A stretch of DNA of 64,000 bases from Candidatus Woesebacteria bacterium. GTDB lineage: Bacteria > Patescibacteriota > Microgenomatia > UBA8517. Below the pieces are notes generated by a model. That model made no database searches. It saw only the letters and a list, made by a program, of their open reading frames with translations, and had not been told where the DNA came from. This document shows, piece by piece, positions 5,056 to 31,368 of this stretch (position 1 is its first letter; every line of letters starts with the position of its first letter). The DNA is taken from positions 371,270 to 435,269 of the forward strand of contig JAGVAE010000002.1 in the NCBI GenBank assembly GCA_020060565.1, given 5' to 3'. Made by a program: the position numbers and the translations under genes.

Positions 5056-6148
5056 ATTCTTTGTATGCCAAGAGGGTCATTTTAAGAAGCATTAGTCCAT
5101 GTCTAAATCTGTTAATATTTGTTGTTCCATAAACTCTTTCTCTGTATCTAATTGGAATCTCAACTACTTTAAGATTATTTTTTATTGCTCCAAATATTAA
5201 AGCAAAATCTCCAAATGGATCCATTTTAAAATATCTTTTATTATGTTTTCTGATGTATACATAATCTTTTCTAAAAAGTGCTTTTGTTCCACATAGTGTA
5301 TCTTTAAAATTTTGTCCTAAAATTTTGGTGAATATAAAACCAAACAATTTATTACCAATCTGGTTTAAAAATCTCATTGAATCATTCTCCATTGGATAAA
5401 CCATTCGGCTTCCGTTAGCAAATTCACCAAGGCTTGTTGCCAGGACTTTATAAAACTTTGGTAAATCGGTAGGGGACACAGTTCGGTCTGCATCGTAAAT
5501 CATGAGTATCTCACCCTTTGCTTTCTCAAATCCAAGCCATACTGCGTCAGCCTTTCCTTTACCGCTTTGTTTAAAAGCTTTAAGGGTTAAATAAGCTTTG
5601 TGTTTTTTGGAAAGTTCTATTTGAATTTTGTCCCAAGTTTTGTCTTTAGAATTTCCTTCAACAAATACAATTTCTTGCCATTTACCAAACTTGGGGATAC
5701 TTAAAGCAATTTTAGGAATGTTCCCTTCCTCGTTTCTAGCAGGAACAATTATCGATACACTATACTCTTTTTTTAGTTTCACACCTTCAGGCCTTTTTCT
5801 AGCAGTGGTAAGCATGATTAGACCCATAAGACGGGTTTGTGTAGATATTACTTCAAAACCACTGATATTTAAGATGTTTTCAATGTCGTTTTCATCTAAC
5901 CAATTTTGGATACCTACTTTTTTTCTTAGTCCTAATATAGAAGCTAAAGAAAGAATGGGTTCCCAGAGATGACTGTGGTAGGTAATGAGAATTCTAGTTT
6001 CTGGCGATATTTTCTTTGATATTTTTTCAAAATAACCAACCAAATCTGGAGTATCACTTACAACATTGCTCAGTACCACGCCCGAGAACTTTTTATAGAC
6101 CCTTTTGAGATCGCTGTAGTAAATCTTCTGAAATATGTTTAATGCCAT
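5045..6148 (-). CDS. GT2 polyprenyl-phosphate sugar synthase-like (DPM1/GtrB/CsbB type) with about 130 aa N-terminal extension
   Basis: SIIVPARNEEGNI, ADAVWLGF and DADRTVSP motifs characteristic of Dol-P-Man/undecaprenyl-P-sugar synthases. Confidence 0.7.
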   Translation of the reverse strand: MALNIFQKIYYSDLKRVYKKFSGVVLSNVVSDTPDLVGYFEKISKKISPETRILITYHSHLWEPILSLASILGLRKKVGIQNWLDENDIENILNISGFEVISTQTRLMGLIMLTTARKRPEGVKLKKEYSVSIIVPARNEEGNIPKIALSIPKFGKWQEIVFVEGNSKDKTWDKIQIELSKKHKAYLTLKAFKQSGKGKADAVWLGFEKAKGEILMIYDADRTVSPTDLPKFYKVLATSLGEFANGSRMVYPMENDSMRFLNQIGNKLFGFIFTKILGQNFKDTLCGTKALFRKDYVYIRKHNKRYFKMDPFGDFALIFGAIKNNLKVVEIPIRYRERVYGTTNINRFRHGLMLLKMTLLAYKEFRS

Positions 6149-9232: not shown

Positions 9233-9984
9233 ACAAATTAACAAAAGTAGAAATTAACGAAAAAGAGTATTTTAATAAAATTGCGAATAAATATGATAAA
9301 AATTATCATTATCTGGAGCCTTTTACCAAATATAAGATTAACAAAAAGGTATTAGAGTTTGCGAGGTTAATAAATGGTTATACTAAGTCGGATGGACTGC
9401 ATATGCTTGAGGTGGGTTGTGGAACTGGAGAATATACAAAACGGATCGCCAAATTCTTTCCAAAGTCAAAAATTACAGGACTTGATATATCTGAACATGT
9501 GGTTTCAGTTGCAAAAATAAAATGTAAAAGAAATAAAAATGTTTCCTTTGTTGTTAAAAGTGCGTATCACACAGGTTTTCCAAAGGAATCCTTTGATGTT
9601 ATTTTTGGCTATTATGTACTACACCACTTAAATATTCCGAAATTTAGAAAAGAAATGTTTAGAGTATTAAAATCCGGAGGATTTGCATTTTTTTATGAAC
9701 CAAATCTTATAAACCCTGCAGTTTATTTGATTAAATCCAATAAATATTTAAAAAAGAAAGCTGGAGACTCTATATATGAATGGGCAGTTAACCCCCTAAC
9801 TATAGAAAAGAATCTGACCAGTTTTAAAATGATAAAAGTGGCCACAAGTGAATACATTTTACCTTTAAAAATAATTCCTCTTAAAATTATGATTGTTGTA
9901 GACACAATAACGGATTATCTTAAACACATTCCGTTTATAAAGTATTTTGGCGGTTCGGTTTACATTTTTATGACCAAAAAATGA
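9229..9984 (+). CDS. class I SAM-dependent methyltransferase
   Basis: MLEVGCGTGEYT and FGYYVLHHL motifs; ATGA overlap with the upstream gene. Confidence 0.8.
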   Translation: MNKLTKVEINEKEYFNKIANKYDKNYHYLEPFTKYKINKKVLEFARLINGYTKSDGLHMLEVGCGTGEYTKRIAKFFPKSKITGLDISEHVVSVAKIKCKRNKNVSFVVKSAYHTGFPKESFDVIFGYYVLHHLNIPKFRKEMFRVLKSGGFAFFYEPNLINPAVYLIKSNKYLKKKAGDSIYEWAVNPLTIEKNLTSFKMIKVATSEYILPLKIIPLKIMIVVDTITDYLKHIPFIKYFGGSVYIFMTKK

Positions 9985-11558
9985 AAACAAATAAATTTTT
10001 CATTTTATTTATAATTTCAATCTTCTACTTTTTTTATATATCTTTCGTAACAAAGCCTTGGACATTTGATAACTTTTCATTGGTAGACGATGGACAAGTT
10101 CTTACCCAAAATGGTCAATACCTAAGTAGCTGTATCAAATATTTAGATTGCTCTCAATATTTTGATCAAACATTTGAACTTGGAACATATAGATTTAGAC
10201 CTGCATATTGGATTATTAATGGTGTTAATCAAATTGTTTTTGGAAATAGAGCGGATTTACATCATATTTACCGTGTATATGTAGTTGGTTATTTGTCTGT
10301 AATACTTTTGGCCTTGATTCTTTTAAGGCTCAAGGTTAACAATTTGGTTGTTGTATTTACAACCCTTATTTTTATGACGTCGTTTTCTTTTTCAGAAAAC
10401 ATTATACGCTTGGGTACCAATGAACCTTATCAAGTAATATTTTTAGCTCTTTTTTCAATTATGTATCTATACCAAACAAAAAATAGAGTTTTACTGATCG
10501 TACTGCTAGTTTGGTCACTTTTAATTAAGGAGAATAATATTGCAATTCTTCCTGCAATATTATTTACGGAGTTTCTGACAAATAAAAAATTTTATTTAAA
10601 TAAACCATTCTGGTTGGTGCTTGGAATTCCATTATTGGTTTTTGTTGCGGGCTCGGTTATTGGCAAATTTATAATGCCAAGCACTACCATTGATATGCCT
10701 GTATATACCAGCAATTATGTTGTCGGAGTTAAAGAGATTTTGAATAACTCACAAGCTATATCTGCTATTCTTTTTAGTGATACTTCACTGCTTTTGGTTC
10801 TTATTTTTCCGTTTTTATTATTATTTAAAGATATTAGGAGTGCTTTAAAGAATAAAGAATTTATTTATTGGGTATTATTTTCTGTATTTTCAATAGTAAT
10901 CCTTACTCCATGGAAATATGTACTTGATCGGTATTATCTTGTTGGTATTTTTGGATTAAATATTGTGATGGCCTACATTGTTAGTCAGTTAATCACGCTA
11001 GTGAGAAATAGATTAAATCCAAAATTTTGTGATACTACGACTAAAGTTGTAGTTTTTAATATTGTTGTCTTTTTGGTTATGTCAAACATATTTTTTAGAG
11101 GGCTTCCGATAAATATAATAAAAACATTAAATTACAGAAATTGGTTTGAGGTTTTTACTAATTTTGAAAAAGATCAAGTTATAGAGATTGCAAAATATAA
11201 TAAAAATGGAGTTTATCTCAACATGGTTAATAATCTAGACAGTTGGGAGTTTCTTTATGAGATTCCAATTCATCTCAAGCTTCTATATGGAATAGATCCC
11301 AATACTAAAATGTTGGGATCTGCACTTCCAAAGTCTGGAATTGTATTTTCCAGATCATCACTCGATATGGTTTTTGACATAGAAAAATTAGAAAAATTGG
11401 GATATAAAAAAGTTGAGGGCAAATCATATTATATTGATCAGATTGACCCTCAAAAATTTAGAAATGAATTTGGCATGAGACCTATACAAACTATTTTTAA
11501 TCCACCATTTAAAAAGGAAAGTCTAAGCTACTCTTGGGAAATAAGATATAAAAAATAA
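9981..11558 (+). CDS. polytopic membrane protein, GT-C-like glycosyltransferase
   Basis: 525 aa, more than 10 TM, SLLIKENNIAILP motif, C-terminal soluble domain. Confidence 0.5.
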   Translation: MKTNKFFILFIISIFYFFYISFVTKPWTFDNFSLVDDGQVLTQNGQYLSSCIKYLDCSQYFDQTFELGTYRFRPAYWIINGVNQIVFGNRADLHHIYRVYVVGYLSVILLALILLRLKVNNLVVVFTTLIFMTSFSFSENIIRLGTNEPYQVIFLALFSIMYLYQTKNRVLLIVLLVWSLLIKENNIAILPAILFTEFLTNKKFYLNKPFWLVLGIPLLVFVAGSVIGKFIMPSTTIDMPVYTSNYVVGVKEILNNSQAISAILFSDTSLLLVLIFPFLLLFKDIRSALKNKEFIYWVLFSVFSIVILTPWKYVLDRYYLVGIFGLNIVMAYIVSQLITLVRNRLNPKFCDTTTKVVVFNIVVFLVMSNIFFRGLPINIIKTLNYRNWFEVFTNFEKDQVIEIAKYNKNGVYLNMVNNLDSWEFLYEIPIHLKLLYGIDPNTKMLGSALPKSGIVFSRSSLDMVFDIEKLEKLGYKKVEGKSYYIDQIDPQKFRNEFGMRPIQTIFNPPFKKESLSYSWEIRYKK

Positions 11559-11639
11559 TGAAAAAAAAAGGCGATAAAAATAATAGGACACTCTCTTTTA
11601 TTACCTATTATATGGTTTTCATACCTTGCGACCTTACTT

Positions 11640-12530
11640 ATGAGTCTTGGAAGATTCAAGTATCTATCAGGCAATTTTGGAGATAACCACCTCCTAAGCA
11701 TTTTTTTCTCGATCGGATGGAAAACTTCAAGTTTGTTAGGAATAATATTTTTATTTGTGTTAGTTGCTTGGGTTTACATTTATATTCGTGGTGAATCTAC
11801 GATTAAAAACAAAATTTCATTTTTTATTGTTGGCCTTACTTCTGTATTTACTTTTTTTGTTTCTAATGGCTTTGTTAATCAAGAGAATGTAAATTTCGGT
11901 AATTATTTATATTCTCTATATGGTATAACAAAACAAAGTTTTGAGCTCCTATCTAATATCAGTTTAATCACAACATTTCTTTATGGTGCATTTTTATTTA
12001 ATGAATTCGACAGTTTAAAGAATAAAAAGAAGGTCAATAATAAGTTCGGTATTTCAAATAAAATGCTCATGACAATTCCATTCTTAGGAATATTGGCTTG
12101 GTATTCTCTCCAGACTTTAATCAAAGCTGACGATTATCTTTCATATGCAAAATTTACATATGAAGATGCATTTGAAAATTATAAAAGTATAGCTAGATTG
12201 TGTGAAATAGTTCCGGAAAACAGTGCAATAATTATACCTGTTCAAGGCATTGATTGGCCGGATATAAGTAATGCCCCAATTGTAAGATATTTTTTATTTC
12301 CAAGAATGATCGTAAGTTCCTCCGATCTTACCAGTCAAGAAAAAGCTGCAAAACTTAAAGAAGCTTATTTCATTTCACTAAACAAGGGTAATAAGTTATT
12401 TTGGCCAATAATTGACAGGGAAAAAGAAGTGGTCTATTTTGCACCCAACAACCCTTTAGGTTATTCAGATCTGATTGTGGTAAATAAAGAAAACGGTATG
12501 GTAATTTATAAAATAATTTTTCAAAAATGA
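11640..12530 (+). CDS. membrane-anchored protein, family A; copy 1 of a duplicated module
   Basis: N-terminal TM segments plus a C-terminal soluble domain; ENSAIIIPVQGIDWPD...RYFLFPR matches the C-terminal domain of the 13758..14693 product. Confidence 0.5.
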   Translation: MSLGRFKYLSGNFGDNHLLSIFFSIGWKTSSLLGIIFLFVLVAWVYIYIRGESTIKNKISFFIVGLTSVFTFFVSNGFVNQENVNFGNYLYSLYGITKQSFELLSNISLITTFLYGAFLFNEFDSLKNKKKVNNKFGISNKMLMTIPFLGILAWYSLQTLIKADDYLSYAKFTYEDAFENYKSIARLCEIVPENSAIIIPVQGIDWPDISNAPIVRYFLFPRMIVSSSDLTSQEKAAKLKEAYFISLNKGNKLFWPIIDREKEVVYFAPNNPLGYSDLIVVNKENGMVIYKIIFQK

Positions 12531-13774
12531 TATATCTTATTTCGACATTGTTATTGTCTTCGGTTTTGACAACCAAAATATTATTTGTAGCCATCGGAAG
12601 GGGTGGAAGCCCCGGTTTTTTTGAATACATGTCTATCCTTGTTCTTGCTGTATTAATAATAGTGGGAACATTCAACTACATTAATGGCAGGGGAAAACAG
12701 AAACCTGAAAAACTTGTAGTTGAGAAAGCTGGTCTTGCTAAGTTTCTCGTAATTCTTAGTATTCTATTTATTTCTACCTCATTATTTATCAATTTTAATA
12801 AAAAAGCTGTTCTTTGGGATGCGGTAGCACTCTATGACGCACGGGCAAGGTTTCTGGTAAAGGGGATTGATTTCAGTGAGATGGTCGAAATTTCGAAATA
12901 TGACTCCAATAACAGCTACTATTATGTTTTATATCCTCCATACACAAGTATGGTTCACTATTTGTGGTATGAGTTGGGAATATCAATTCCTGTTGGTGTC
13001 TTTTATTCCATATCTCTGCTTCTTTTGGCGGTTGTTATTTATTATGTAACGCGGAAACATCAAAGTTTGATTGTGGCTGCATTATTAACATTCATTGTTG
13101 TTTCAAATGGAGTAATTTTTTCTCTATCGCTATCTGAGTATACAAACTTACCCTTTACTTTGCAGATGTTTCTGGGAGTTTTCCTGATATATGAGTATTT
13201 AAAAGATGGATCGAAGTGGAAAATATTTTATGGGATCGGTTTAGTAATAACAACGATGTGGATTAGATTCCTTGAGCCTATATGGGTTGGAGCCGTGCTA
13301 GCACTATTTATTTCAACTTTTACTAAAAAGAAATTTTCAAAAGAACTGTTATACCCTGTATTAATGTTGGTGTGTGGGGTAATTGAATATATTGCATGGC
13401 AGTCTTTTGTTTCAGGATCGGTGGATACTACTAAGATGGTGAGCTTTTCAGCTATTAGATTTCTTGAACCTATTGTTGGAATATTCACAGGATCTCTGAC
13501 TTCAATTTTTGCTTTTTTTGTAAAATCATGGGGGTTAATATTACCTGTGCACATTTTTGCAATATATTTGGCTATATTAAATAAAAAGAAACTTAACTTT
13601 TTACAGATGTTTATGATTTTTACAATGCTGATATATTTTTCCGGATTATATTTTGTTTCCTTCCAATCTGTATGGTGGGATAAATTGGGGGACTCACTTG
13701 TAAGGGGGTCAACATTTATGATACCAATTAGTGGTTATCTTGTATTAGAATACCTGAATGGAAAGAAAAATTAA
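12527..13774 (+). CDS. polytopic membrane protein, family B; copy 1 of a duplicated module
   Basis: WDAVALYDARA, EYTNLPF and RFLEPIW motifs are shared with the 14694..16073 product. Confidence 0.5.
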   Translation: MIYLISTLLLSSVLTTKILFVAIGRGGSPGFFEYMSILVLAVLIIVGTFNYINGRGKQKPEKLVVEKAGLAKFLVILSILFISTSLFINFNKKAVLWDAVALYDARARFLVKGIDFSEMVEISKYDSNNSYYYVLYPPYTSMVHYLWYELGISIPVGVFYSISLLLLAVVIYYVTRKHQSLIVAALLTFIVVSNGVIFSLSLSEYTNLPFTLQMFLGVFLIYEYLKDGSKWKIFYGIGLVITTMWIRFLEPIWVGAVLALFISTFTKKKFSKELLYPVLMLVCGVIEYIAWQSFVSGSVDTTKMVSFSAIRFLEPIVGIFTGSLTSIFAFFVKSWGLILPVHIFAIYLAILNKKKLNFLQMFMIFTMLIYFSGLYFVSFQSVWWDKLGDSLVRGSTFMIPISGYLVLEYLNGKKN

Positions 13775-14693
13775 CTTATCCTTTTGGTTTTTTTGGGGAC
13801 TATCAATGCTGGTAAGTTTGGTGGAGGCTGTTACTTATTCAGGATTTATAATAAAACATACAGGTTTGAATCCGCTTTTAACCATTACTCCTGCCATATT
13901 TCTTAGTTTAACGCTTCTTGTTTTAAATTTTGTAAAGAAAAATAAGAAATCTCAAAAGAACGATAAAGCATTGGTGTTTTTTTCAGTTTTTCTGTTAATA
14001 CTATATATTGTACTTAAAATAGTGGATCGTTTAACTTATGCTAATTTTGTTTTTAGTAATCTGCATATCCAACCCAATAATCTTCTTTGGCCTGTATTAA
14101 TTTCATTTTTGTCTATAGTTTTTGTATGGTTCCCGAGGATAAATTTTAAAAAACTACTTACTTCTCGATCGGTTTTATTTTTGTTTGTAACTTCCATCAT
14201 TGTATTTAATATATATAGAATTTATAAAATGGAGTGGTGGGCATTCCAATTCATTATTACCCATCCACAAGCTTCATACGACGATAAAATGAGACGAGCG
14301 GTGGGACCAGTATTCTATAACTTTACTCAATTTATTAATACAAACACACCTGAGGATTCATCAATTTTGATTCCTCCACAGGCTTTTCCTTGGCCCCAAT
14401 CAGGGAACGAAGCTTTTATGAGGTATTTTATTCATCCTAGAAAAATGGGAAATGGCAAGGAATATAACCCTCAAACAAAATTAAGTGATTATGACTTTAT
14501 CGTCTTAAATTGGGGAGAGACAGATAGTACAGAGCCCCCATATACTCATAGCTGGCCGAAGTTTGATGTACCCGCAGAAGGAATTATATTTATGAATGCT
14601 GATGGAACATTTGGGGGAGAGATTAAGGGAAATTATTATTACAAAGACTATATTGATAAAAAAGTCTGGGGGCTTATTATAATCAAACATTAA
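13758..14693 (+). CDS. membrane-anchored protein, family A; copy 2
   Basis: EDSSILIPPQAFPWPQ...MRYFIHPR is homologous to the 11640..12530 product. Confidence 0.5.
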   Translation: MERKINLSFWFFWGLSMLVSLVEAVTYSGFIIKHTGLNPLLTITPAIFLSLTLLVLNFVKKNKKSQKNDKALVFFSVFLLILYIVLKIVDRLTYANFVFSNLHIQPNNLLWPVLISFLSIVFVWFPRINFKKLLTSRSVLFLFVTSIIVFNIYRIYKMEWWAFQFIITHPQASYDDKMRRAVGPVFYNFTQFINTNTPEDSSILIPPQAFPWPQSGNEAFMRYFIHPRKMGNGKEYNPQTKLSDYDFIVLNWGETDSTEPPYTHSWPKFDVPAEGIIFMNADGTFGGEIKGNYYYKDYIDKKVWGLIIIKH

Positions 14694-16073
14694 ATGTTAT
14701 TAATATTTGGAATGCTACTGGTTTTAATTTTTGGCTTTCTGTTAAGTGTAATTTTGGTTGAGGAAATGCACCCAATGGAGAGATTGGGAATATCATATCT
14801 TTTAGGTTTTGGAATTTTTACGCTTTTGATGTTTTGTTATTCAACATTAGGTATAAAAATTACATTAATAAGTACGCTGACGGCACTGGGAATTTGTATC
14901 ACAGCGACCTTGGCATTTTTCAAGGTATTTAAACGAAAAATTTCTATAAACCTGTCAGGATTTATTAAGTCATTGTTCTATTTGTCTCGTTTAGAAAAGA
15001 TTATTGTCTCAGTAATAGCGGGACTTGTGGTTGCAAGTTTTACCATCTCGATATATTTCCCTGTATATATTTGGGATGCTTTGGCTTTATACGATTTTCG
15101 CGCAAAAATAATTGCTCAGATTGGTTTTTATACACAAATTGCAAATAATTATGTTTGGTTTGGGGGTTATCCTCTTTTTACATCTTTAAGCCATACGTTG
15201 GTTTATATCTTTGGGGGGAATAATCCCCAATTTTTGTATTCTTCAATGTATGTTTCTTATATTTTTGTATTTTATGGAGCTCTTCGTCAGATTGTTAACA
15301 GAAAAGTCTCGTTAATTTCAACTTTACTTTTGGCTACAACTCCTGTTTTTTTTGATCATTCAACGTTTGCCTATACAAACCTTCCTTATTCAATATTTCT
15401 TTCAATGGGAAGCATTTATATATATGTATGGTTAGTGAAGAATAAACCATTTGGTTATTTAATTCTTGCAGCAGTAATGACAGGACTTTCGACGTGGACA
15501 AGGAGTACTGAACCATTTTGGATAATTAATTTAATAGTATTAGCAATTCTATTGCTTTATAAAATTAAAAAGTACCTTCTACCTTTAGTAGTATATCTAT
15601 CTACATTTTTGTTGATAAGGGAACCGTGGAATATTGTAAATAATTATATTCTTACAGATAGAAAAGCATTAATTGCTTCTAATATTGAACCTGTGACAAG
15701 TTCCTATATCTCTATAATTTCAAGAATACCAGAATGGAATAGGATAGTTGAAATTGGGGTATACATTTATAAATATATAGTAGTCTCGTGGTATCCGTTT
15801 TTGTTTTTGTTTTTGCTTTGTTTGTTACTTAGTGTCAAAAATTTTTTTCATAGATATGGTTCATTTTTTGTTTTAATAATCATTCTTTATTTTTGTCTTT
15901 TGGTATTTGGAACTTACTTATTTACTTTTAGCAACGTTTCCTGGAATGAGATACCCGATTCGGCGAGACGCATGTCAATGTTTTTTATGCCATTAATGAT
16001 TTTTTATGCTGGAATGGTTTTTGATACTTTTTCCTCTAGTACGAATTTTAAAAAAACTAGAAAGATAAAATGA
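14694..16073 (+). CDS. polytopic membrane protein, family B; copy 2, with an extra N-terminal TM region of about 100 aa
   Basis: WDALALYDFRA, AYTNLPY and RSTEPFW motifs are shared with the 12527..13774 product. Confidence 0.5.
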   Translation: MLLIFGMLLVLIFGFLLSVILVEEMHPMERLGISYLLGFGIFTLLMFCYSTLGIKITLISTLTALGICITATLAFFKVFKRKISINLSGFIKSLFYLSRLEKIIVSVIAGLVVASFTISIYFPVYIWDALALYDFRAKIIAQIGFYTQIANNYVWFGGYPLFTSLSHTLVYIFGGNNPQFLYSSMYVSYIFVFYGALRQIVNRKVSLISTLLLATTPVFFDHSTFAYTNLPYSIFLSMGSIYIYVWLVKNKPFGYLILAAVMTGLSTWTRSTEPFWIINLIVLAILLLYKIKKYLLPLVVYLSTFLLIREPWNIVNNYILTDRKALIASNIEPVTSSYISIISRIPEWNRIVEIGVYIYKYIVVSWYPFLFLFLLCLLLSVKNFFHRYGSFFVLIIILYFCLLVFGTYLFTFSNVSWNEIPDSARRMSMFFMPLMIFYAGMVFDTFSSSTNFKKTRKIK

Positions 16074-17014
16074 AAAAAAGCAGCAAAAACATAAGAAACA
16101 AATATCCTGTTGTTTTTTTTGTGTTTCGAAGACCGGATACAACTTTACGGGTTTTGAAAGAAATTATAAAGTCAAAACCGTACAAATTGTACATATTTGC
16201 TGATGGACCGAGAGATGAAAGTGATTTTTTTATGGTAAATAGAACAAGGAAATGTATTGACGATTTACTGTCAAAATCTAAAATAAATATAATTAAAATA
16301 TATAGAAAAAAGAATTATGGACTAAAGAAAAGTATTCTAGGTGGACTAAATGAAGTTTTTATTCATGAAAATGCAGCGATTATTTTGGAAGATGACTGTT
16401 TCCCATCTCTTAATTTTTTTGATTTTTGTAATTTTGCTTTAAATAAGTATTACAACAGCACTGAAATAAACACGGTTTGCGGCACCAACGTAGGAGTTGG
16501 AAATAAAAAGAATAAAAATTTGATTGTCTCTAAATATTTTCTACCCTGGGGATGGGCACTATGGAAACGCAGTTGGCTCGAATATAAGAATGTAAGAGAA
16601 GAAGATTTAAAAGCTATACTTAGCAAAAAAAACAATAAGATTCTTGCTTGGTATCTTATGCAGGTATACAATCTCAGCAAAGAAGAAAAGGTAAAGGCTT
16701 GGAGCTATAGAATGGTGATTATGCAAATAGTGAATGAAAAGCTAAGTCTTTACCCATCGTATAATACAGTAAGCAATATTGGATTCGGCGGACGTTCATC
16801 TAACACTCTTGTTAAGACAGTTGGTTCAAATTTTGAAATTGACAAGAAAGTAAAAAAAATAATTAACAAAAACGCGACTTATCGAAAAATGAAAAAATAT
16901 GACAATTTTATTGCTTACAATTTATATCTTACTCCAATTTCCTTTTGTGGGTTAATTTTGAGAAAATATTTTCCCTATCTTGTTAAATATATTTATCGTA
17001 AATGGAATAAATAA
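16070..17014 (+). CDS. GT-A fold glycosyltransferase-like protein
   Basis: [10 protein letters not shown]...[10 protein letters not shown] followed by a DxD-like ILEDDCF; family not assigned. Confidence 0.45.
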
Positions 17015-17729: not shown

Positions 17730-18566
17730 ATGAAAGTAGATAGTCATAAAGTTACCGTGATTAGACCTAAACCAAGATGGTTGTTATTAGATTTTACTGA
17801 GATTTGGGAATTCCGTGAGCTTTTTATTGTTTTTGCCTGGAGAGATATAAAGGTCAGGTACAAACAAACAATATTAGGTGCAACCTGGGCAGTCTTCCAA
17901 CCATTAACCTCAATGTTTATATTTACAATTTTTTTTGGAAATTTTGCAAAAATTCCATCTGGCGATTTGCCATATCCTTTATTTGTATTAACTGGGTTAA
18001 TTTTCTGGAATTACTTTTCAGGAATTCTTTCCCGTGCTAGTAATTCTCTTATTGAAAATGAAGGAATTGTCAAAAAAGTGTATTTTCCTCGAGAGATTCT
18101 ACCCCTTTCTACTGTAGGCGCAAACTTAATTGATTTTGGAATTTCCCTGGTACTTTTATTTCTAGTTTCTTTTTATTTTAATTTTGTTCCCAATCCACGT
18201 GTTCTGTTTGTTGTTCCTTTGGGTTTACTAATTGGAACATTTGGGGCGGGAGGACTTGGCCTTTTGTTATCTTCTTTCAATGTAAAATATCGTGATGTTC
18301 GTTACGCGTTACCATTTTTTATTCAGATGATGATTTTTCTAACTCCTGTGATTTATCCGACTAGCATAATGAGATCATCGTTTCGTTATCTCATCGCTTT
18401 AAATCCAATGACGGGAGTAATTGATGCTGCAAGGATAGTGTTTTCCGGAGGATCAAATATAAATTGGCCAATATTGGCAATTTCTGGAGGATCATCATTA
18501 TTATTGTTTATTGTTGGATTATATTATTTTAAATCGACTGAAAGGTTTTTTGCGGATCTTGTTTAA
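17730..18566 (+). CDS. wzm: ABC-2 type polysaccharide exporter permease (Wzm/TagG-like)
   Basis: RDIKVRYKQTILGATWAVFQPL signature and 6 TM; GAGGT SD-like element and TAAAAT hexamer 7 nt upstream of the ATG. Confidence 0.85.
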   Translation: MKVDSHKVTVIRPKPRWLLLDFTEIWEFRELFIVFAWRDIKVRYKQTILGATWAVFQPLTSMFIFTIFFGNFAKIPSGDLPYPLFVLTGLIFWNYFSGILSRASNSLIENEGIVKKVYFPREILPLSTVGANLIDFGISLVLLFLVSFYFNFVPNPRVLFVVPLGLLIGTFGAGGLGLLLSSFNVKYRDVRYALPFFIQMMIFLTPVIYPTSIMRSSFRYLIALNPMTGVIDAARIVFSGGSNINWPILAISGGSSLLLFIVGLYYFKSTERFFADLV

Positions 18567-18569
18567 AGA

Positions 18570-19814
18570 ATGAAACCAATAATCGAAGTAACTAACTTAT
18601 CAAAGAAATACAAATATGGTGAATCTCAACCATATTACACTTTACGAGATACCCTTACAGGTCTTGTTAGAGCTCCATTTCATTTGCTAAATAAAAAACA
18701 AAAACAAATTAATCTGAATAAAAATGAATTTTGGGCATTAAATAATATTTCATTTAAGGTTAATCGTGGCGAGGCAATGGGGATTGTTGGACATAATGGA
18801 GCAGGAAAAAGTACTATTCTTAAAATATTAAGTAGAATTACCCCACCTACCAAAGGAAAAATTACTCTTCGGGGAAGAGTAGGAAGTTTGTTGGAAGTGG
18901 GAACGGGTTTTCATTTCGAACTAACTGGGCGAGAAAACATTTACCTTAACGGGGCCATTTTGGGGATGAAAAGGCGTGAGATAGATAAGAAATTTGACGA
19001 AATAGTAAATTTTTCTGGGGTAGAAAAATTTTTAGACACGCCTGTAAAACATTATTCATCTGGTATGTATATGAGATTGGCTTTTGCTGTTGCGGCCAAT
19101 CTAGATTCCGAAATACTTATAGTTGATGAAGTTTTGGCAGTGGGAGATACTGAGTTTCAAAAAAAGTGTCTTGGGAAAATGGATGAAATTACAAAGAAAG
19201 AGGGAAGAACAATTTTATTTGTTAGCCACAATATGGGGGCTATAAAAAGATTGTGTGGTAAGGGCCTTTTGTTAGATTCCGGTAAAAAGATATATGAAGG
19301 AAAAATAGACAATGTGGTAGATCAATACATGACTTCATTCGATGTAAAAAAAGTTTTTGAACCAATAAAAGTACCTGAAATCGATCTAGTAATTAATAAA
19401 ATTTCGATTAATCAAAAAAACAACGGGAAAATAGTTCCTGGAAAACCCGTACAGGTGGATATAGATATTTTTGCTGAGCATGAAGTTAAAGATATTGGAA
19501 TCGAAATTATATTCTCTCATGACGATATGGATGGTCGCCTATTTTCAACCAATACAAAATCTTCTGACGGCTTAGAAATTGTTATTAAAAAGGGTAATAA
19601 TCATTTTACATGTTTTATCGACAGTTTTAATTTGTGTTCAGGTAAATACAGATTTGGTTTTAGTATACAAATTCCCTTTATTAAATCTTATTATCTTAAT
19701 ACGGATCTATTTTATTTTGATGTTCTAGAAACCACCTTTAGTAATTCCCAACTACCAACACTTCCAATGTATGGTCATGTATACCTTGATCATAAATGGC
19801 TTATTAAAACTTGA
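18570..19814 (+). CDS. wzt: ABC exporter ATPase (Wzt/TagH-like) with a C-terminal extension of about 170 aa (putative glycan-binding domain)
   Basis: Walker A GHNGAGKST, signature YSSGMYMRLAFAVA and Walker B ILIVDEVL; residues from about 245 to 414 lie beyond the NBD. Confidence 0.85.
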   Translation: MKPIIEVTNLSKKYKYGESQPYYTLRDTLTGLVRAPFHLLNKKQKQINLNKNEFWALNNISFKVNRGEAMGIVGHNGAGKSTILKILSRITPPTKGKITLRGRVGSLLEVGTGFHFELTGRENIYLNGAILGMKRREIDKKFDEIVNFSGVEKFLDTPVKHYSSGMYMRLAFAVAANLDSEILIVDEVLAVGDTEFQKKCLGKMDEITKKEGRTILFVSHNMGAIKRLCGKGLLLDSGKKIYEGKIDNVVDQYMTSFDVKKVFEPIKVPEIDLVINKISINQKNNGKIVPGKPVQVDIDIFAEHEVKDIGIEIIFSHDDMDGRLFSTNTKSSDGLEIVIKKGNNHFTCFIDSFNLCSGKYRFGFSIQIPFIKSYYLNTDLFYFDVLETTFSNSQLPTLPMYGHVYLDHKWLIKT

Positions 19815-19823
19815 TCTAAAAGT

Positions 19824-20768
19824 ATGCAAAAAATTGTTATTTTACTTAAAACATATAAAGGAGATATTGATTATATAAAAAGATTGATTGAAAGCTTTAA
19901 AAAATATAATCATGACAAAATACCTCTTTATATTGTAGTTCCATCAATTGATTTATCACTATTTAAAAAATTTGTAGATAAGAATATTAAACTATTAAGT
20001 GATGAGTCTATAACGACCGATTTAGTTTATGATAATAGTATTTGGGGTATACGCCCAGGGTATATTAATCAAGAAATAATCAAACTATCTTTTTGGAAAA
20101 AAGGATTATGTAAAAATTATTTCTGCATGGACTCAGACGGTGTGTTTATTCGTAATTTTTATGTATCTGATTTTATGTATGATGAAAATACACCTTATAC
20201 AATACTATCTGAGGATCACGAGTTGATAGTAGACCCTCAATACTATAAAGACTATTGGTGTGAAAGAGAAAGGTTAATTAAACGAATACAGAAAAAAATT
20301 GGATTAACCGATAGGCGAATGTTAACTTCTCATGGATTTGCAATACTTTCATGTAAAGTGCTTGAATCTTTTTATAAAAAATATCTCTTGCCAAACAAAC
20401 TTAGATATACTGACATTTTGAAAATTGCACCGTATGAATTTTCGTGGTATAACATGTGGCTACAGAAAGATAAAACAATTCCTATTGAGTTTAAAGATCC
20501 ATTGATAAAGCTGTTTTACCAAAAATCTCAACATCTTGAATATTTGAATAGAGGAATCACAGTGAAAGATATTTCAAGAGGGTACATTGGATATGTTATA
20601 AACTCTAACTATTCTAGAGGGTATGGTGTTTTGGACTACAGTGAAGGAAATCGATACACACCTTCGCTAGAAGATATAAAATCTGCAACCTTTAGTATAG
20701 TCAGGTATTTTTACATAAAATTCAGCAAATCATTAAAAAGAGTTTTTAACTTATTTAAACAGTTATGA
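19824..20768 (+). CDS. hypothetical protein, possible GT-A-like sugar transferase (CMDSDGVF motif)
   Basis: No confident family; located between Wzt and the FkbM methyltransferases. Confidence 0.35.
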   Translation: MQKIVILLKTYKGDIDYIKRLIESFKKYNHDKIPLYIVVPSIDLSLFKKFVDKNIKLLSDESITTDLVYDNSIWGIRPGYINQEIIKLSFWKKGLCKNYFCMDSDGVFIRNFYVSDFMYDENTPYTILSEDHELIVDPQYYKDYWCERERLIKRIQKKIGLTDRRMLTSHGFAILSCKVLESFYKKYLLPNKLRYTDILKIAPYEFSWYNMWLQKDKTIPIEFKDPLIKLFYQKSQHLEYLNRGITVKDISRGYIGYVINSNYSRGYGVLDYSEGNRYTPSLEDIKSATFSIVRYFYIKFSKSLKRVFNLFKQL

Positions 20769-21571
20769 GATTTGTTATGACAACAACACATATGAGCAAA
20801 TTTGTTAATATGGCGATTCGAACAATAGAAAAACTTACCGGATACGAGATATTGGTTCATAAGAGAAATGCAAATAAATCAAAATCAAGTACGAGGTATT
20901 TAGCTGAAACCACTCGCTATATTAATCAGATTTCTTGCTTTATCCCAAAAAATGTATTTGAAATTGGAGCAAATTATGGTCAAGACGCCGATTTTTTAAA
21001 AAGAGAATTTAATTTGAGCAATAAAAATGTATACGTTTTTGAACCCCACCCAGAATTATTTAAAATGATAAAAGAACGATACGGTTTTAATTGTAATAAC
21101 TATGCGGTGTCTAACAGAAATGGGAAATGTATATTTCATACAATGAATCTAAATAAAAATAATGGAGCATCTTCTTTAATGGTACACAAATATAATGACA
21201 AGAAAATGTATAGTGATATAACAGTTCAAACAAGAAGAATGGACTACTTTATTTCTAAAAATAATATAAAATCAATTGATTTTCTGAAAATCGATGTCGA
21301 GGGCCTAACATATGAAGTTTTGTCCGGTTTCGGTAAAAGTATACAAATGGTTAAAGCTGTTCAGGTAGAGACCGAATTCCTACCCATCTGGAAAGGTCAA
21401 AAGACTTGGAGTGATGTTTACAAATTATTGTCAATTAAAGGATTTCAATTGATTGATTATAGATTACACGAAGGAGGAACTCAGGCAGACTCTTTTTGGA
21501 TTCAAAAGAGATATGTTGATAACAAGATTTTTAACTTAAAAAATAACAGATGGGAAGATATGCACAAATAA
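20765..21571 (+). CDS. FkbM-family methyltransferase
   Basis: VFEIGANYGQDA...VFEPHPELF...DFLKIDVEGLTYEVL. Confidence 0.75.
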   Translation: MRFVMTTTHMSKFVNMAIRTIEKLTGYEILVHKRNANKSKSSTRYLAETTRYINQISCFIPKNVFEIGANYGQDADFLKREFNLSNKNVYVFEPHPELFKMIKERYGFNCNNYAVSNRNGKCIFHTMNLNKNNGASSLMVHKYNDKKMYSDITVQTRRMDYFISKNNIKSIDFLKIDVEGLTYEVLSGFGKSIQMVKAVQVETEFLPIWKGQKTWSDVYKLLSIKGFQLIDYRLHEGGTQADSFWIQKRYVDNKIFNLKNNRWEDMHK

Positions 21572-21572
21572 A

Positions 21573-22355
21573 ATGAAGAAATTTCTAATATCAATTATAC
21601 GAAAATTCGGGTTCGATATTGTCAGATATGGAAATTTCGTAAAATCAGTGAGGACAAAAAAGTTATCGCTTTATAAAACTAAAACAGGAGATTATTTTTT
21701 ACCAACTGATGCAGTCAATGATGAAATTGCATACGCAATTAAAAATGATACAGTTTTTGATAAGGAGGTTGTTGATTGTGCAGCAAAGTATATCAAGCCC
21801 GGAACCGTAGTACTTGATTTGGGTTGTAATTTTGGGCAGATGAGTATTCTATTTTCAGGTCTAGTCAAAAATACTGGAAAAGTACATGCGTTTGAGGCTG
21901 ATAGTTGGGTATACAAAATATTATTAAAAAACATTAAAGCGAATAAAAAAGAAGAAGTTGTTATTCCCCACTTTGGCGCTGTGCACAATACCGTTAACAA
22001 AATACTTCGGTTTCCTATCCAAAATTTTAAGAAGTATCAGTCATATGGATCTTATGGAATTGACTATACCGCAAAACATGGCAGAAGGGTAAAATCGCTT
22101 ACAATTGATAGTTTGAAAATCAAAGAAGAAATTAGTTTTATGAAAATAGATATCGAAGGGGGAGACCTCAAAGCCATGCAAGGTGCTCGAAAGACAATCC
22201 TTAAAAACAAAATGCCGATCATTTTTGAATATCAGTATACTTATGAAGATAAGTATAAAATGTGTTTTCAAGATTATGTAGATTTTGTTGGAAGTATAAA
22301 TTACAGATTTGTAAAAGTAATTAATGGATGTAATTATCTAATCTTGCCAAAATGA
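21573..22355 (+). CDS. FkbM-family methyltransferase
   Basis: VVLDLGCNFGQMS...VHAFEADSWVY...FMKIDIEGGDLKAM. Confidence 0.75.
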   Translation: MKKFLISIIRKFGFDIVRYGNFVKSVRTKKLSLYKTKTGDYFLPTDAVNDEIAYAIKNDTVFDKEVVDCAAKYIKPGTVVLDLGCNFGQMSILFSGLVKNTGKVHAFEADSWVYKILLKNIKANKKEEVVIPHFGAVHNTVNKILRFPIQNFKKYQSYGSYGIDYTAKHGRRVKSLTIDSLKIKEEISFMKIDIEGGDLKAMQGARKTILKNKMPIIFEYQYTYEDKYKMCFQDYVDFVGSINYRFVKVINGCNYLILPK

Positions 22356-22358
22356 AGT

Positions 22359-23588
22359 ATGTATACGGAAATAAATAAATGTCGAATCTGTGGAAGCTCA
22401 CACCTGATTGTTGTATTGTCACTTGGAAAACAATATCTTACTGGTGTTTTTCCTAAGTCTTCTGGAGAGAAAATTACAAAGGGTCCTCTTGATATGGTTT
22501 GGTGTACAAAATGTGGCCTTCTTCAAATGAAACAATCATATAGCTCTGAAGAAATGTATGGTGATAATTATGGATATCGCTCTGGACTAAATGTTTCAAT
22601 GGTTAAACATTTACAACAAAAAATGAGAATGTTGGAAATATTGGCTAAACCGAAAGCATCTGAACTATTAATAGATATAGGTAGTAATGATGCTACTTTA
22701 TTAAAAGCCTGTACAGGTAAATATAAAAAAGTGGGAATAGACCCTACAGGGAAAAAATTTAAAAAATACTATTCAAAAGATATGACTCTGATTTCAGATT
22801 TTTTTTCAACGGCTTCTTTTAAAAAAATATTCCCCAATAAAAAGGCAAAGATTATTACATCAATTGCGATGTTTTATGATTTGGAAAGCCCCAGGGATTT
22901 TGTATTAGATGTAAGGAAATGTCTTGCTGACGATGGTATTTGGCATTTTGAACAAAGTTATATGCCAAGTATGCTTCGCACCAATTCTTATGACACGATA
23001 TGTCATGAGCATCTTGAATTTTATTCTTTTAAAGTAGTTAAAAACTTGCTTGAAAAATGTGGAATGAAAGTAGTGGACGTTGAAGTGAATGCAATTAATG
23101 GTGGAAGTTTTGCTGTCACTGCTTGTAAGAAGTCGGCCAAATATAAGTCGAATATGCCAATAATAAATTGGATGTTAAAACAAGAAAAAGATATGGGTCT
23201 TAACACCCCAAAACCATATAGAGATTTTGAGGAGAAAGTTTATAAACATAGAGAGAATCTAAGAGAATTGATAAAAAGTCTTGTTGCAGATGGAAAGAAA
23301 ATAATTGGTTATGGAGCTAGCACAAAAGGTAATGTTCTTCTACAGTTTTGTGGTTTTGATACAAAACATATTTCTTGCATAGCCGAAGTGAATGAAGAAA
23401 AATTTGGATCATTCACCCCAGGAACTAAAATTCCTATAATTTCTGAAAAAGAAGCTAAATCCAAAAAACCAGATTATTTCTTCGTATTGCCATGGCATTT
23501 TAAATACAACATATTGGAACGAGAAAAAGAATTCTTGGAAAACGGGGGAAAGTTCATTTTCCCTCTTCCTTATATAGAAATTATTTGA
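22359..23588 (+). CDS. SAM-dependent sugar C-methyltransferase-like (N-terminal zinc ribbon plus methyltransferase plus C-methyltransferase C-terminal domain)
   Basis: CRICGS...CTKCG zinc-ribbon pairs; LIDIGSNDATLL motif I; domain order as in TylCIII-type enzymes. Confidence 0.65.
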   Translation: MYTEINKCRICGSSHLIVVLSLGKQYLTGVFPKSSGEKITKGPLDMVWCTKCGLLQMKQSYSSEEMYGDNYGYRSGLNVSMVKHLQQKMRMLEILAKPKASELLIDIGSNDATLLKACTGKYKKVGIDPTGKKFKKYYSKDMTLISDFFSTASFKKIFPNKKAKIITSIAMFYDLESPRDFVLDVRKCLADDGIWHFEQSYMPSMLRTNSYDTICHEHLEFYSFKVVKNLLEKCGMKVVDVEVNAINGGSFAVTACKKSAKYKSNMPIINWMLKQEKDMGLNTPKPYRDFEEKVYKHRENLRELIKSLVADGKKIIGYGASTKGNVLLQFCGFDTKHISCIAEVNEEKFGSFTPGTKIPIISEKEAKSKKPDYFFVLPWHFKYNILEREKEFLENGGKFIFPLPYIEII

Positions 23589-27682: not shown

Positions 27683-27738
27683 AAAAACAAACTTCAAAGA
27701 TCGTATTTTTTTTAAAATATCGTGATAGAATACAGCAT

Positions 27739-28746: not shown

Positions 28747-28759
28747 TGATTCAAAATCA

Positions 28760-29524: not shown

Positions 29525-29540
29525 TGGCAATTATATTTGT

Positions 29541-30407: not shown

Positions 30408-30481
30408 AAATACTAGCCATCACTCAAGCCAGGATCGGATCAACCCGTGTACTAGGAAATGAATTGAGTATGAATATATAA
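30404..30481 (+). pseudogene. 26-codon fossil of the 5' end of an SpsF-type cytidylyltransferase gene (MKILAITQARIGSTRVLGNELSMNI*)
   Basis: First 15 codons match the start of the 31369 gene (MKILAITQARVGSTR), then the sequence diverges and terminates; ATGA overlap with the AKR copy 1 stop. Confidence 0.6.
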
Positions 30482-30494
30482 TTATAATAAACGA

Positions 30495-31367: not shown

Positions 31368-31368
31368 T

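Follow-up and report, generated by a model that had tools for sequence, protein, structure and literature searches.

Organization of the Locus

Four ORFs form a tandem array in the window, which is the whole 64-kb stretch of DNA that was analyzed. The array belongs to an extensive island of surface-glycan genes in a bacterium of the Patescibacteria (CPR; genome GC content, ~31%), and consists of the following co-directional genes, which overlap or abut one another:

11640–12530, + strand: A, partner protein, copy 1; ORF of 296 aa when read from its first in-frame ATG, against 323 aa in homologs
12527–13774, + strand: B, GT-C-type glycosyltransferase, copy 1; ORF of 415 aa
13758–14693, + strand: A′, partner protein, copy 2; ORF of 311 aa
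14694–16073, + strand: B′, GT-C-type glycosyltransferase, copy 2; ORF of 459 aa

The coordinates, the strand and the order A–B, A′–B′ agree exactly with a preliminary description, in which the arrangement was reported as a tandem duplication of a two-gene membrane module. The A/B junction is an ATGA overlap, B and A′ overlap by 17 nt, the TAA stop codon of A′ is directly followed by the ATG of B′, and a further ATGA overlap joins B′ to the next gene; these junctions fit the translational coupling that had been proposed for the array.

A–B and A′–B′ are two paralogous gene pairs. A and A′ match over their C-terminal ~130 aa (BLASTP, E = 1e-10, 26% identity), which bears out the shared C-terminal soluble domain noted earlier, and B and B′ match across 328 aa (BLASTP, E = 1e-14, 26% identity). 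The Smith–Waterman scores of A/A′ (z = 11.4) and B/B′ (z = 18.2) lie far above those of shuffled controls, each being reached by 0 of 300 shuffles, and similarity between A and B is at background level (z < 1 in all comparisons, 300 shuffles). All four genes are under purifying selection, with dN/dS values of 0.12–0.16 (0.16 for A, measured against the homologous locus L034, and 0.14 for B).

The ATG at 11640 corresponds to an internal Met of A homologs, and the following feature lies upstream of it:

11558–11569, + strand: ancestral ATG of A (11558–11560) and a run of nine A residues (A9; 11561–11569)

The A9 run is 1 nt longer than in the homolog (a 1-nt indel in the DNA alignment with L034), which places the ATG at 11558–11560 out of frame, and no other A or T run reaches 9 nt in the 64-kb window. 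The in-frame upstream codons of A read KKKAIKIIGHSLLLPIIWFSYLATLL, agreeing with the N-termini of homologs. Sequence comparison places the ancestral start of A at 11558–11560, and not at the ATG of 11640.

In addition to GT2 genes, many methyltransferases and sugar-nucleotide enzymes, the surrounding island holds the following genes:

28–360, + strand: small DUF2304 membrane protein (Pfam DUF2304, E = 1.3e-20); ATGA overlap with the GT2 gene at 357–1124
357–1124, + strand: family-2 glycosyltransferase (GT2; Pfam Glycos_transf_2, E = 4e-29)
9981–11558, + strand: U, ORF for a 525-aa polytopic membrane protein
17730–18566, + strand: ABC-2 permease (ABC2_membrane, E = 7.5e-22)
18570–19814, + strand: ATPase with a C-terminal extension (ABC_tran, E = 2.4e-23; Wzt_C, 20.3 bits, sub-threshold)
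37980–39521: PMT_2 protein, a single-chain GT-C with a C-terminal soluble tail

The DUF2304 protein may serve a lipid-linked sugar synthase as a helper or flippase, and the GT2 protein encoded at 357–1124 is a candidate polyprenol-phosphate-sugar synthase or chain-building glycosyltransferase; the order GT2–DUF2304–GT2 is also found in locus L001. No match to the GtrA family (PF04138) was found among the window proteins scanned (every large ORF, 28 to 39.5 kb). A topology sketch of U comprises one TM helix, a 68-aa acidic loop, further TM helices and a 145-aa C-terminal soluble tail, and its segments FDNFSLVDD and GTNEPY were aligned to B motifs in a weak profile match (E = 0.041); U is probably a single-chain GT-C. 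In homologs, the stop codon of U overlaps the ancestral start of A (TAATG), and loci L001, L004 and L034 each have a U ortholog linked to the array. The permease and ATPase (17730–19814) resemble a Wzm/Wzt-type glycan exporter, and the same transporter is also located downstream of the array in L001 and L004.

B and B′ as GT-C-Fold Glycosyltransferases

B′ matches Pfam PMT_2 with 30.4 bits, above the cutoff of 26.1; PMT_2 matches 38 of 51 B-family members, and B itself has no Pfam match. The AF2 model of B′ (pLDDT 90.7, pTM 0.91) is an all-helical membrane protein with the full complement of GT-C helices, and its best PDB fold matches are all GT-C enzymes, headed by STT3 (8age_A), AglB (7e9s_A) and STT3 (6c26_A and 6s7t_A) at probabilities of 0.99–1.0 and followed by AftA, ALG9 and EmbB, with a fold similarity to solved GT-Cs that is modest (TM-score 0.40–0.44, E 0.016–0.06). 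No PDB relative of B or B′ was detectable by sequence or profile. The motifs quoted in the preliminary description (WDAVALYDARA, EYTNLPF and RFLEPIW in B) are present and coincide with (near-)invariant columns of the wider family, where W127, D128, D134, Y227-T228-N229, W268, R270, P274 and W276 of B′ are conserved; the first outward-facing loop of the GT-C core carries the invariant Asp residues, and the segment TRSxEPFW an invariant Arg. From the above-threshold PMT_2 match, the fold matches of the model and these invariant acidic and Arg motifs, B and B′ are therefore assigned as GT-C-fold glycosyltransferases, in agreement with the membrane glycosyltransferase suggested previously.

A gain of about 100 aa of N-terminal TM helices by B′, also suggested previously, is contradicted by the alignments, since B′ is just 44 aa longer than B. 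B matches the B-family HMM (E = 2.4e-85) over profile positions 33–439, and B and its orthologs begin at approximately position 33–43, one N-terminal TM helix short, whereas the other clades are full length; one N-terminal helix (~30–44 aa) was probably lost in the clade of B. Neither B nor B′ has a soluble domain.

The A Family

A and A′ share an architecture of ~5 TM helices and a ~140-aa extracytoplasmic α/β domain. In the AF2 model of A′ (pLDDT 90.8), the N-terminus is inside and the α/β domain (~residues 170–311) is outside. The A/A′ family comprises 837 representative clusters, and the relatives come from Patescibacteria/CPR. No Pfam or NCBIfam model was found for the family, consistent with the lack of a family assignment noted initially, and a Pfam domain was present in 0 of 66 close homologs of A′. 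The sole recurrent Pfam signal is DUF6798 (PF20604), a domain of unknown function for which no literature was found; it covers a segment of ~20 residues (ILIPPQxFPWP) and was matched by 9 of 45 sequences in one set and by 20 of 104 in a second, more diverse one, with every match falling short of the gathering threshold (best family E-value, 6e-4; A′, 13.5 bits against a cutoff of 26.9). The A′ soluble domain has no significant PDB fold match, and no similarity was detected between the A soluble domain and those of single-chain GT-Cs in the same loci, so that the notion of A supplying a domain missing from B is an analogy only.

The motif residues P206, W212, Y223, F224, R228 and W266 of A′ are (near-)invariant across the wider family. 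In an alignment of 104 sequences (24% mean identity), most near-invariant positions are occupied by aromatic residues, Pro, Asn, Arg or Gly, and one by His, and no acidic or nucleophilic residue is conserved throughout, D270 being near-invariant only in a closer set of 45 sequences. This pattern fits a binding or structural role better than that of an independent enzyme. Asn96 and His103, which are near-invariant and lie in an outward-facing loop of the TM domain, could point to a catalytic or transport role instead; together with Y27, they form a set of near-invariant polar residues at the outer membrane interface.

Conservation and Co-divergence of the Pairs

In every examined locus with sufficient downstream DNA, A is located directly upstream of a same-strand B, and the two genes mostly overlap or are separated by a few nucleotides. 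The sample is not an unbiased one, since members of the A′ or B′ families served as seeds for most loci; in those seeded from distant B′ homologs, A is directly upstream in 6 of 6. Both outcomes that the preliminary description named as refuting it are thereby contradicted, as the copies score far above shuffled controls and A and B are neighbors in all other loci examined. Tandem arrays (L001, L003, L004, L008, L009, L012, L016, L021, L026, L033 and L034) and single pairs (L005, L006, L007 and L013) both occur, and the array arrangement is kept between loci at 36–44% identity. The trees of A and B contain the same four clades, with a Mantel correlation (r = 0.89) reached by 0 of 2000 permutations, indicating that the pair duplicated and diverged as a unit. 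The duplication is evidently ancient and has been kept across divergent lineages; the reported duplication therefore holds for the two-gene unit, but not as a local event in this genome.

B and A′ are fused into one protein in P0194 and P0197, both located within normal arrays; the two share just 38% identity but align colinearly across the linker, and such fusions account for 2 of 150 among the A-family representatives listed. In these fusions, B is joined to the A′ encoded after it, whereas in the universal pair A comes before B; the contacts within an array are accordingly ambiguous. Gene linkage, co-divergence and the fusions suggest that A and B associate physically, with A as the possible periplasmic partner proposed in the preliminary description.

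Proposed Function and Alternatives

We favor, as slightly more likely than not, a model in which each pair is a two-subunit extracytoplasmic glycosyltransferase that decorates an exported glycan, with B or B′ as the catalytic subunit and A or A′ as its partner. B and B′, as distant relatives of the ArnT/PMT_2 group, would use a polyprenol-phosphate-linked donor as the source of the sugar, on the outer side of the membrane. A and A′, encoded on the same transcript just upstream of B, would most likely dock onto the cognate B and most likely contribute acceptor or lipid-linked-substrate binding or stabilize B. The two pairs would probably differ in the sugar they add or in the position at which they modify the glycan, which would be built in the cytoplasm and exported via the adjacent Wzm/Wzt-like ABC transporter, and both pairs may assemble as one larger complex. 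What we infer, besides the physical association of A with B, is the part played by A, the identity of donor and acceptor, and the higher-order complex. GT-Cs with lipid-linked donors are known to decorate glycans made by ABC-transporter systems, sometimes with an extra acceptor-binding domain in cis (PMC11127046). Conservation of the pairing across many relatives points to an enzyme that is usually single-chain in bacteria but here takes a two-subunit form.

A may instead be a dedicated flippase or handler of the lipid-linked donor, a functional analogue of GtrA rather than a structural subunit, that supplies its cognate GT-C with the polyprenol-phosphate-sugar by bringing it to the outer leaflet. 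Gtr-type systems require a synthase, a flippase and a GT-C (PMC11127046), yet a GtrA-family match is absent among the scanned window proteins; the small 5-TM domain with its interfacial Y27, N96 and H103 would be compatible with such a role, and one A per B would suit donor-specific flipping. This role is nonetheless unlikely: a large, highly conserved extracytoplasmic domain is unexpected for a flippase, the GT2-coupled DUF2304 protein already provides a candidate for the flippase or helper, A resembled no transporter family in the searches, and the fusions and tight co-divergence indicate physical association.

It is likewise improbable that A is an independent enzyme acting before or after B on the same substrate (e.g., by trimming, transfer or ligation at the outer face) and co-transcribed for pathway reasons only. 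Family libraries gave no enzymatic matches for A, the 104-sequence alignment lacks a conserved acidic or nucleophilic residue, and mirrored trees with maintained fusions are more typical of interacting subunits, although co-transcription by itself would account for the strict operonic linkage, the pocket-like N96, H103, W212, N217, R228 and W266 (with D270 in the closer set) could be an active site, and a fold with no solved counterpart leaves room for a new enzyme.

A and B might also be halves of a fissioned single-chain GT-C, with A derived from the C-terminal TM helices and soluble domain, and with the array as a series of split genes in which a shifted register makes B plus A′ the real unit. 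The fusions are laid out like single-chain GT-Cs (a TM core with a soluble domain C-terminal to it), B and A′ overlap by 17 nt in the window, and the same island encodes GT-Cs of the single-chain kind that end in a soluble tail, namely the PMT_2 protein at 37980–39521 and probably U. This origin is quite improbable, however, because A precedes B with no A-like gene after B in the single-pair loci L005, L007 and L013, the B′ model already has its full GT-C helix complement, no homology of A domains to single-chain GT-C tails was detected, and the fusions are rare among the listed A-family representatives. Finally, hydrophobic low-complexity proteins from a genome of ~31% GC can inflate alignment scores, but a compositional artefact without a functional module is refuted by composition-preserving shuffles that still yield z = 11–18, by an A/A′ match that falls in the soluble domain, by invariant family motifs that coincide with the matched positions, and by the cross-locus conservation, A-then-B linkage, tree co-divergence and dN/dS values.

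Comparison with Known Systems

B and B′ resemble the ArnT/PMT_2-type GT-Cs (CAZy GT83/GT39-like; PF13231) in the PMT_2 matches of their family, including that of B′ above the gathering threshold, in the polytopic, all-helical nature of B′, and in the conserved acidic residues of the first outward core loop, and some sources annotate homologs as “ArnT-like”. B and B′ lack a soluble domain such as those of ArnT, PglB and the PMTs; they also differ from ArnT/PMT_2 in carrying 3–4 extra TM helices ahead of the catalytic loop and in always being encoded with an upstream partner gene.

Gtr-type three-component glycosylation systems (GT2 synthase, flippase and GT-C), including the GT136 pentofuranose systems, share with the present locus a GT-C encoded in a glycan cluster with GT2 genes and ABC-transporter export, and some of their GT-Cs carry an extra acceptor-binding domain (PMC11127046). 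The expected logic, post-export decoration from a polyprenol-phosphate-sugar donor, would also be similar. Here, however, the extra extracytoplasmic domain belongs to a polytopic protein of its own, A, whose divergence parallels that of the GT-C; no GtrA-family flippase was found among the scanned window proteins, and the GT2 genes are only candidates for the GtrB type.

Multi-subunit or heterodimeric GT-Cs occur in eukaryotes and mycobacteria, as in OST (STT3 with membrane subunits), PIG-M/PIG-X, Pmt1–Pmt2 and EmbA–EmbB. In such complexes, a catalytic GT-C is joined by a membrane-anchored partner with a lumenal or periplasmic domain, or paralogous GT-Cs are paired. In contrast to these complexes, A–B is encoded by a bacterial (CPR) operon, and neither PIG-X nor any OST subunit is homologous to A; STT3 is the best structural match of B′, and the proposed pairing of A with B would be similar in concept to that in these systems.

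Organization and paralogy of the array

The array consists of four co-directional ORFs:

11640-12530, + strand, A, ORF of 296 aa
12527-13774, + strand, B, ORF of 415 aa
13758-14693, + strand, A′, ORF of 311 aa
14694-16073, + strand, B′, ORF of 459 aa

A and B are joined by an ATGA overlap, B and A′ overlap by 17 nt, the stop codon of A′ (TAA) is immediately followed by the ATG of B′, and a second ATGA overlap connects B′ to the next gene. The two pairs thus occur in the same order, and the four junctions would fit translational coupling, both as proposed in the preliminary description. BLASTP aligned A with A′ at E=1e-10 (26% identity, mostly in the C-terminal ~130 residues) and B with B′ at E=1e-14 (26% identity across 328 residues). 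Smith-Waterman z-scores were 11.4 for A/A′ and 18.2 for B/B′, and in both cases none of 300 composition-preserving shuffles reached the real score, so that the explanation of the similarity as a compositional artefact, with a negligible probability, was dismissed; every cross-comparison of A with B gave z<1 (300 shuffles). The C-terminal concentration of the A/A′ similarity agrees with the soluble domain that these proteins had been said to share, and the motifs originally quoted for A/A′ and B/B′ are genuine and fall on columns that are invariant throughout the broader families. Since the motifs are real and invariant family-wide and the similarity exceeds that of the shuffles, the original observation of paralogy is confirmed.

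B′ exceeds B by 44 aa, rather than by the approximately 100 aa that it was thought to have gained. B and its orthologs begin at around position 33-43 of the family profile, one N-terminal TM helix short, and the other clades begin at positions 1-3; from these profile positions, the loss of one helix in the clade of B appears the likelier event. The proteins most similar to A in other genomes measure 323 aa. Ahead of the ATG at 11640, the preceding 26 in-frame codons still read KKKAIKIIGHSLLLPIIWFSYLATLL, the same as in the homologs, whose start corresponds to the ATG at 11558-11560 that overlaps the stop codon (TAATG) of U, a 525-aa membrane-protein gene just upstream. An A9 run at 11561-11569 carries one additional nucleotide relative to a homolog with 85% protein identity, and this ATG is therefore one base out of frame. 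The run is the sole A or T homopolymer of at least 9 nt within the 64-kb window, and the additional nucleotide could reflect misassembly or a very recent frameshift, or else mark the tract of a surface-glycan gene as prone to slippage or phase variation.

Linkage, co-divergence and fusion of A and B

HMMs of the A and B families were run on the ORFs of homologous loci fetched from other genomes. Each A gene for which downstream DNA is available has a B gene next downstream on the same strand, the two usually overlapping or lying a few nucleotides apart, and A–B neighbourhood therefore recurs elsewhere. Full A-B-A′-B′ arrays were identified in L001, L003, L004, L008, L009, L012, L016, L021, L026, L033 and L034, and single A-B pairs in L005, L006, L007 and L013. 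Six loci seeded from distant B′ homologs (34-42% identity) were added to lessen seeding bias, and an A gene lies directly upstream in all six; a reference-genome scan with strict search patterns returned 3 loci. All named sources are Patescibacteria or Woesebacteria, besides that of one A-B pair (L010, CAYSAY010000006.1) on a 55-kb contig from a MAG labelled “uncultured Gammaproteobacteria bacterium”; either this contig was mis-binned or it indicates a broader host range.

The same four clades appear in trees built from 27 A proteins and from the 27 B proteins paired with them, and none of 2000 permutations reached the Mantel correlation of 0.89. Clade II contains all second-position pairs together with some single pairs, and the first-position pairs fall into the three other clades. 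The common clades and this correlation indicate that duplication affected the pair as a whole, in accordance with the tandem duplication of a two-gene module first proposed, and that the duplication is old. Relative to the closest homologous locus (L034), dN/dS is 0.16 in A, 0.14 in B and 0.12 in both A′ and B′.

In two A-family representatives, P0194 (759 aa) and P0197 (781 aa), B is fused to A′ (B~A′), and each is located inside an otherwise normal array in which A is followed by B~A′ and then by B′. The two are only 38% identical yet colinear through the linker; the fusion has therefore been long maintained or has arisen twice, and an assembly error is excluded. Such a fusion is topologically consistent, because the C-terminus of B and the N-terminus of A are both cytoplasmic. 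This evidence of the Rosetta-stone type suggests that B-type and A-type proteins act together, and linkage, mirrored trees and fusions are indirect evidence for a possible physical A–B complex. The fusions join B to the downstream A′, while in the universal pair A is upstream of B, which hints at a larger A-B-A′-B′ assembly in which the contacting subunits are ambiguous from the fusion order.

Assignment of B and B′ to the GT-C glycosyltransferases

B′ matches the Pfam family PMT_2 (PF13231) with a score of 30.4 bits (gathering cutoff, 26.1), a family that is matched by 38 of 51 B-family members (E<0.01). B itself has no Pfam match and, in NCBIfam, just a far-sub-threshold match to LA_3751/3752; it matches the B-family HMM at 2.4e-85, and homologs are labelled “ArnT-like glycosyltransferase” by some sources. 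The AF2 model of B′ (pLDDT 90.7, pTM 0.91) is all helical, with a C-terminal TM helix at residues 431-458 and without any beta or globular region, and the alignment and a topology sketch show that B resembles B′ in having no soluble domain. The best PDB fold matches of B′ are exclusively GT-C enzymes: the top four are yeast and human STT3 and archaeal AglB (probability 0.99-1.0), followed by AftA, ALG9 and EmbB, with modest TM-scores (0.40-0.44) and E-values of 0.016-0.06. Sequence and profile searches of the B family against PDB chains found no relative.

D128 and D134 of B′, together with W127, are invariant among the 51 sequences and lie in short helices directly after the TM helix at residues 99-121; Y227-T228-N229, R270, P274 and W276 are also invariant. 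The distribution of loop charges, read from the sequence, places the D128/D134 loop outside the cell; the hydropathy script gave overlapping segments and was used only for loop charges and overall layout. An acidic first outward loop is a hallmark of GT-C active sites (PMC11127046). From the PMT_2 match, the modest but GT-C-only fold matches and the invariant acidic loop, B and B′ are concluded to be divergent GT-C enzymes, an assignment in which we have high confidence and which identifies the membrane glycosyltransferase suspected in the module from the outset. The GT2 and DUF2304 genes of the cluster make a polyprenol-phosphate-linked sugar a candidate donor for B and B′.

The A family

An exhaustive profile search, with clusters formed at 50% identity, yielded 837 representative clusters of the A family at E<=1e-3 and 546 at E<=1e-10, the proteins usually being 300-350 aa in length; across the window, the A-family HMM detected no member besides A and A′. 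No Pfam domain was found in any of 66 close homologs of A′, and NCBIfam holds no model for A or A′. The sole recurrent Pfam signal in the family is DUF6798, on an “ILIPPQxFPWP” segment, in 9 of 45 members (best E 0.0015) and 20 of 104 members (best E 6e-4), with 13.5 bits for A′ (cutoff, 26.9), all of these being sub-threshold; a search for literature on DUF6798 (PF20604) found none. The AF2 model of A′ (pLDDT 90.8) comprises approximately five TM helices and, C-terminal to them, an alpha/beta domain at about residues 170-311, and the positively charged loops in the sequence place the N-terminus inside and the domain outside. No solved analogue of this fold was detected by Foldseek (best E 0.38, not significant), and a sequence-profile search of the family against the PDB gave nothing significant (best E 4.5).

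A subset of the family (P0046, P0218, P0227, P0230, P0236, P0269 and P0278) measures approximately 460-495 aa and aligns to the A profile over two separate stretches; P0046 (L004 4384-5760) repeats the N-terminal TM region in residues 14-129, ahead of the full module at 149-456. Polytopic membrane proteins of 420-545 aa with DUF8201 (L006 2901-5298, L007 4731-5993, L032 2374-4011) were also observed, adjoining the A gene on its upstream side in L007 and L032. In L006, the gene after that of the DUF8201-like protein encodes 341 aa, with an A-type TM module (profile positions 9-179) and an unrelated C-terminal domain. This arrangement suggests that A-type TM modules may serve as reusable anchors for various membrane enzymes.

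Genomic context of the array

The glycan island that surrounds the module extends over 40 kb or more and contains many SAM and FkbM methyltransferases, hexapeptide acyltransferases, dehydratases and several more GT2 genes in addition to the following features:

Start of window, DUF2304 small membrane protein and GT2
357-1124, GT2
5045-6148, - strand, GT2, with the GT2 domain at residues 132-296
9981-11558, + strand, U, no Pfam match; one TM, a 68-aa acidic loop, many TMs and a 145-aa soluble tail
16070-17014, 314-aa protein directly after B′, no Pfam match
17730-19814, ABC-2 permease and ATPase with C-terminal extension, downstream of the array
20765-23588, two FkbM methyltransferases and a sugar C-methyltransferase, after the ABC transporter
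26474-33450, TagF-like/Epimerase_2, Polysacc_synt_2 dehydratase, epimerase and two aldo-keto reductases
Within 26474-33450, 693-aa cytidylyltransferase and class-III aminotransferase fusion
33475-34389, GT2
37980-39521, further single-chain PMT_2 GT-C, 513 aa

The GT2 at 5045-6148 has an N-terminal extension of ~130 aa ahead of its catalytic domain, and its position is conserved in L001. U aligns weakly to the catalytic motifs of B and is probably a divergent single-chain GT-C; it travels with the array (L004 600-2168, L001 9293-10909, L034 1424-3001), and its stop codon overlaps the start of A in L034. A homolog of the 314-aa protein (L005 9567-10520, 28% identity, E=3e-23) is near, not adjoining, the local A-B pair. 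Two large ORFs (506 and 456 aa) come after the PMT_2 GT-C, as far as 42412, and GT-C-like membrane proteins are unusually numerous in the island.

The C-terminal extension of the ATPase matches Wzt_C at a sub-threshold 20.3 bits (cutoff, 30.4), and the same transporter follows the array in other genomes as well. The genes at 17730-19814 and 20765-23588 resemble those O-antigen and S-layer glycan systems whose transporter recognises a methyl cap, and those at 26474-33450 are typical of the synthesis of nonulosonic acid or other CMP-activated sugars. GT-C enzymes with lipid-linked donors decorate ABC-transporter-made glycans extracytoplasmically, some of them having a further domain in cis for acceptor binding (PMC11127046). 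The island fits ABC-transporter-dependent glycan assembly with subsequent extracytoplasmic GT-C decoration.

Proposed function and alternatives

We propose that each pair is a two-subunit extracytoplasmic glycosyltransferase, in which B would be the catalytic subunit and A a membrane-anchored partner supplying the outward-facing domain absent from B, with a role in binding of the acceptor or lipid substrate or in stabilisation; duplication would then have given rise to two specificities, possibly joined in one complex. This mechanism as a whole, including the role of A, is held with moderate confidence. A further-reaching version, in which A/A′ would define a new, widespread family of obligate co-subunits of bacterial GT-Cs and the array an OST-like hetero-oligomeric machine for extracytoplasmic glycosylation in CPR bacteria, with the partner making up part of the substrate-binding site, is advanced tentatively.

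Gtr-type three-component systems include a GtrA-family (PF04138) flippase, whereas the island of the array carries a DUF2304 protein instead; no match to the GtrA family was found among the scanned window proteins. They also include a GtrB-type GT2 that synthesises the polyprenol-phosphate sugar, for which the GT2 genes at 357-1124, 5045-6148 (- strand) and 33475-34389 would be possible candidates. We regard A as unlikely to be the donor flippase. To a similar degree, it is improbable that A is an independent enzyme. Among 104 diverse family members (24% mean identity), the near-invariant positions in A′ are Y27, N96, H103, I203, P206, P207, W212, G216, N217, F224, Y226, P227, R228, G253, W266, P267, G305 and I307; they are largely aromatic, Pro, Gly, Asn and Arg, with one His, and these members have no conserved acidic or nucleophilic residue in common, a pattern that would suit a binding or structural role of A better than that of a stand-alone enzyme. 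Less probable still is the fission of a single-chain GT-C into A and B, with the array seen in a shifted register. Profile-versus-sequence comparison by hhalign of the A and B families with a full-length PMT_2 protein (L005 12940-14487) and with U gave nothing significant, and the profile of the A C-terminal domain alone detected not even a weak relative in the soluble tails that single-chain GT-Cs carry (best E 0.15). There is therefore no support for homology between A and the C-terminal domain usual in GT-Cs, and the resemblance is one of analogy only.

Should B require this co-evolving polytopic partner, a two-subunit design would be added to bacterial extracytoplasmic glycosylation, and a function would be provided for a large family uncovered by Pfam and NCBIfam. 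Such a requirement could also help to explain the diversification of surface glycans in CPR/Patescibacteria, which depend on host surface contact. The label “GT-C partner” for A-family genes would better annotate many CPR glycan islands, and the A-B pair would lend itself to study by cryo-EM and multimer prediction.

Comparison with known systems

Bacterial GT-Cs (ArnT, PglB, Gtr and the Emb/Aft enzymes) are generally regarded as self-contained, and hetero-oligomeric GT-C enzymes are known chiefly in eukaryotes and mycobacteria. A soluble domain in cis is typical of PMT_2/ArnT-like GT-Cs without strictly defining them; ArnT, PglB/STT3 and the PMTs possess a soluble extracytoplasmic domain in the same polypeptide, whereas B and B′ are divergent members of this known superfamily without an extracytoplasmic domain of their own. 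Pfam and NCBIfam cover neither the A family nor the obligate A-B architecture, and no paper describing them was found; searches for literature on GT-C and Patescibacteria returned none, and a broader CPR/ArnT search nothing relevant. A has no significant Pfam or NCBIfam match to a known accessory subunit, and an OST3_OST6 match in one A-family member (E=0.23) is noise. Eukaryotic GT-Cs with accessory subunits, such as OST and PIG-M/PIG-X, and paralogous GT-C heterodimers such as Pmt1/Pmt2 offer conceptual analogies, no homology of A to any such subunit having been found, and the closest functional analogies are the Gtr-type systems and GT-Cs with a CBM in cis.
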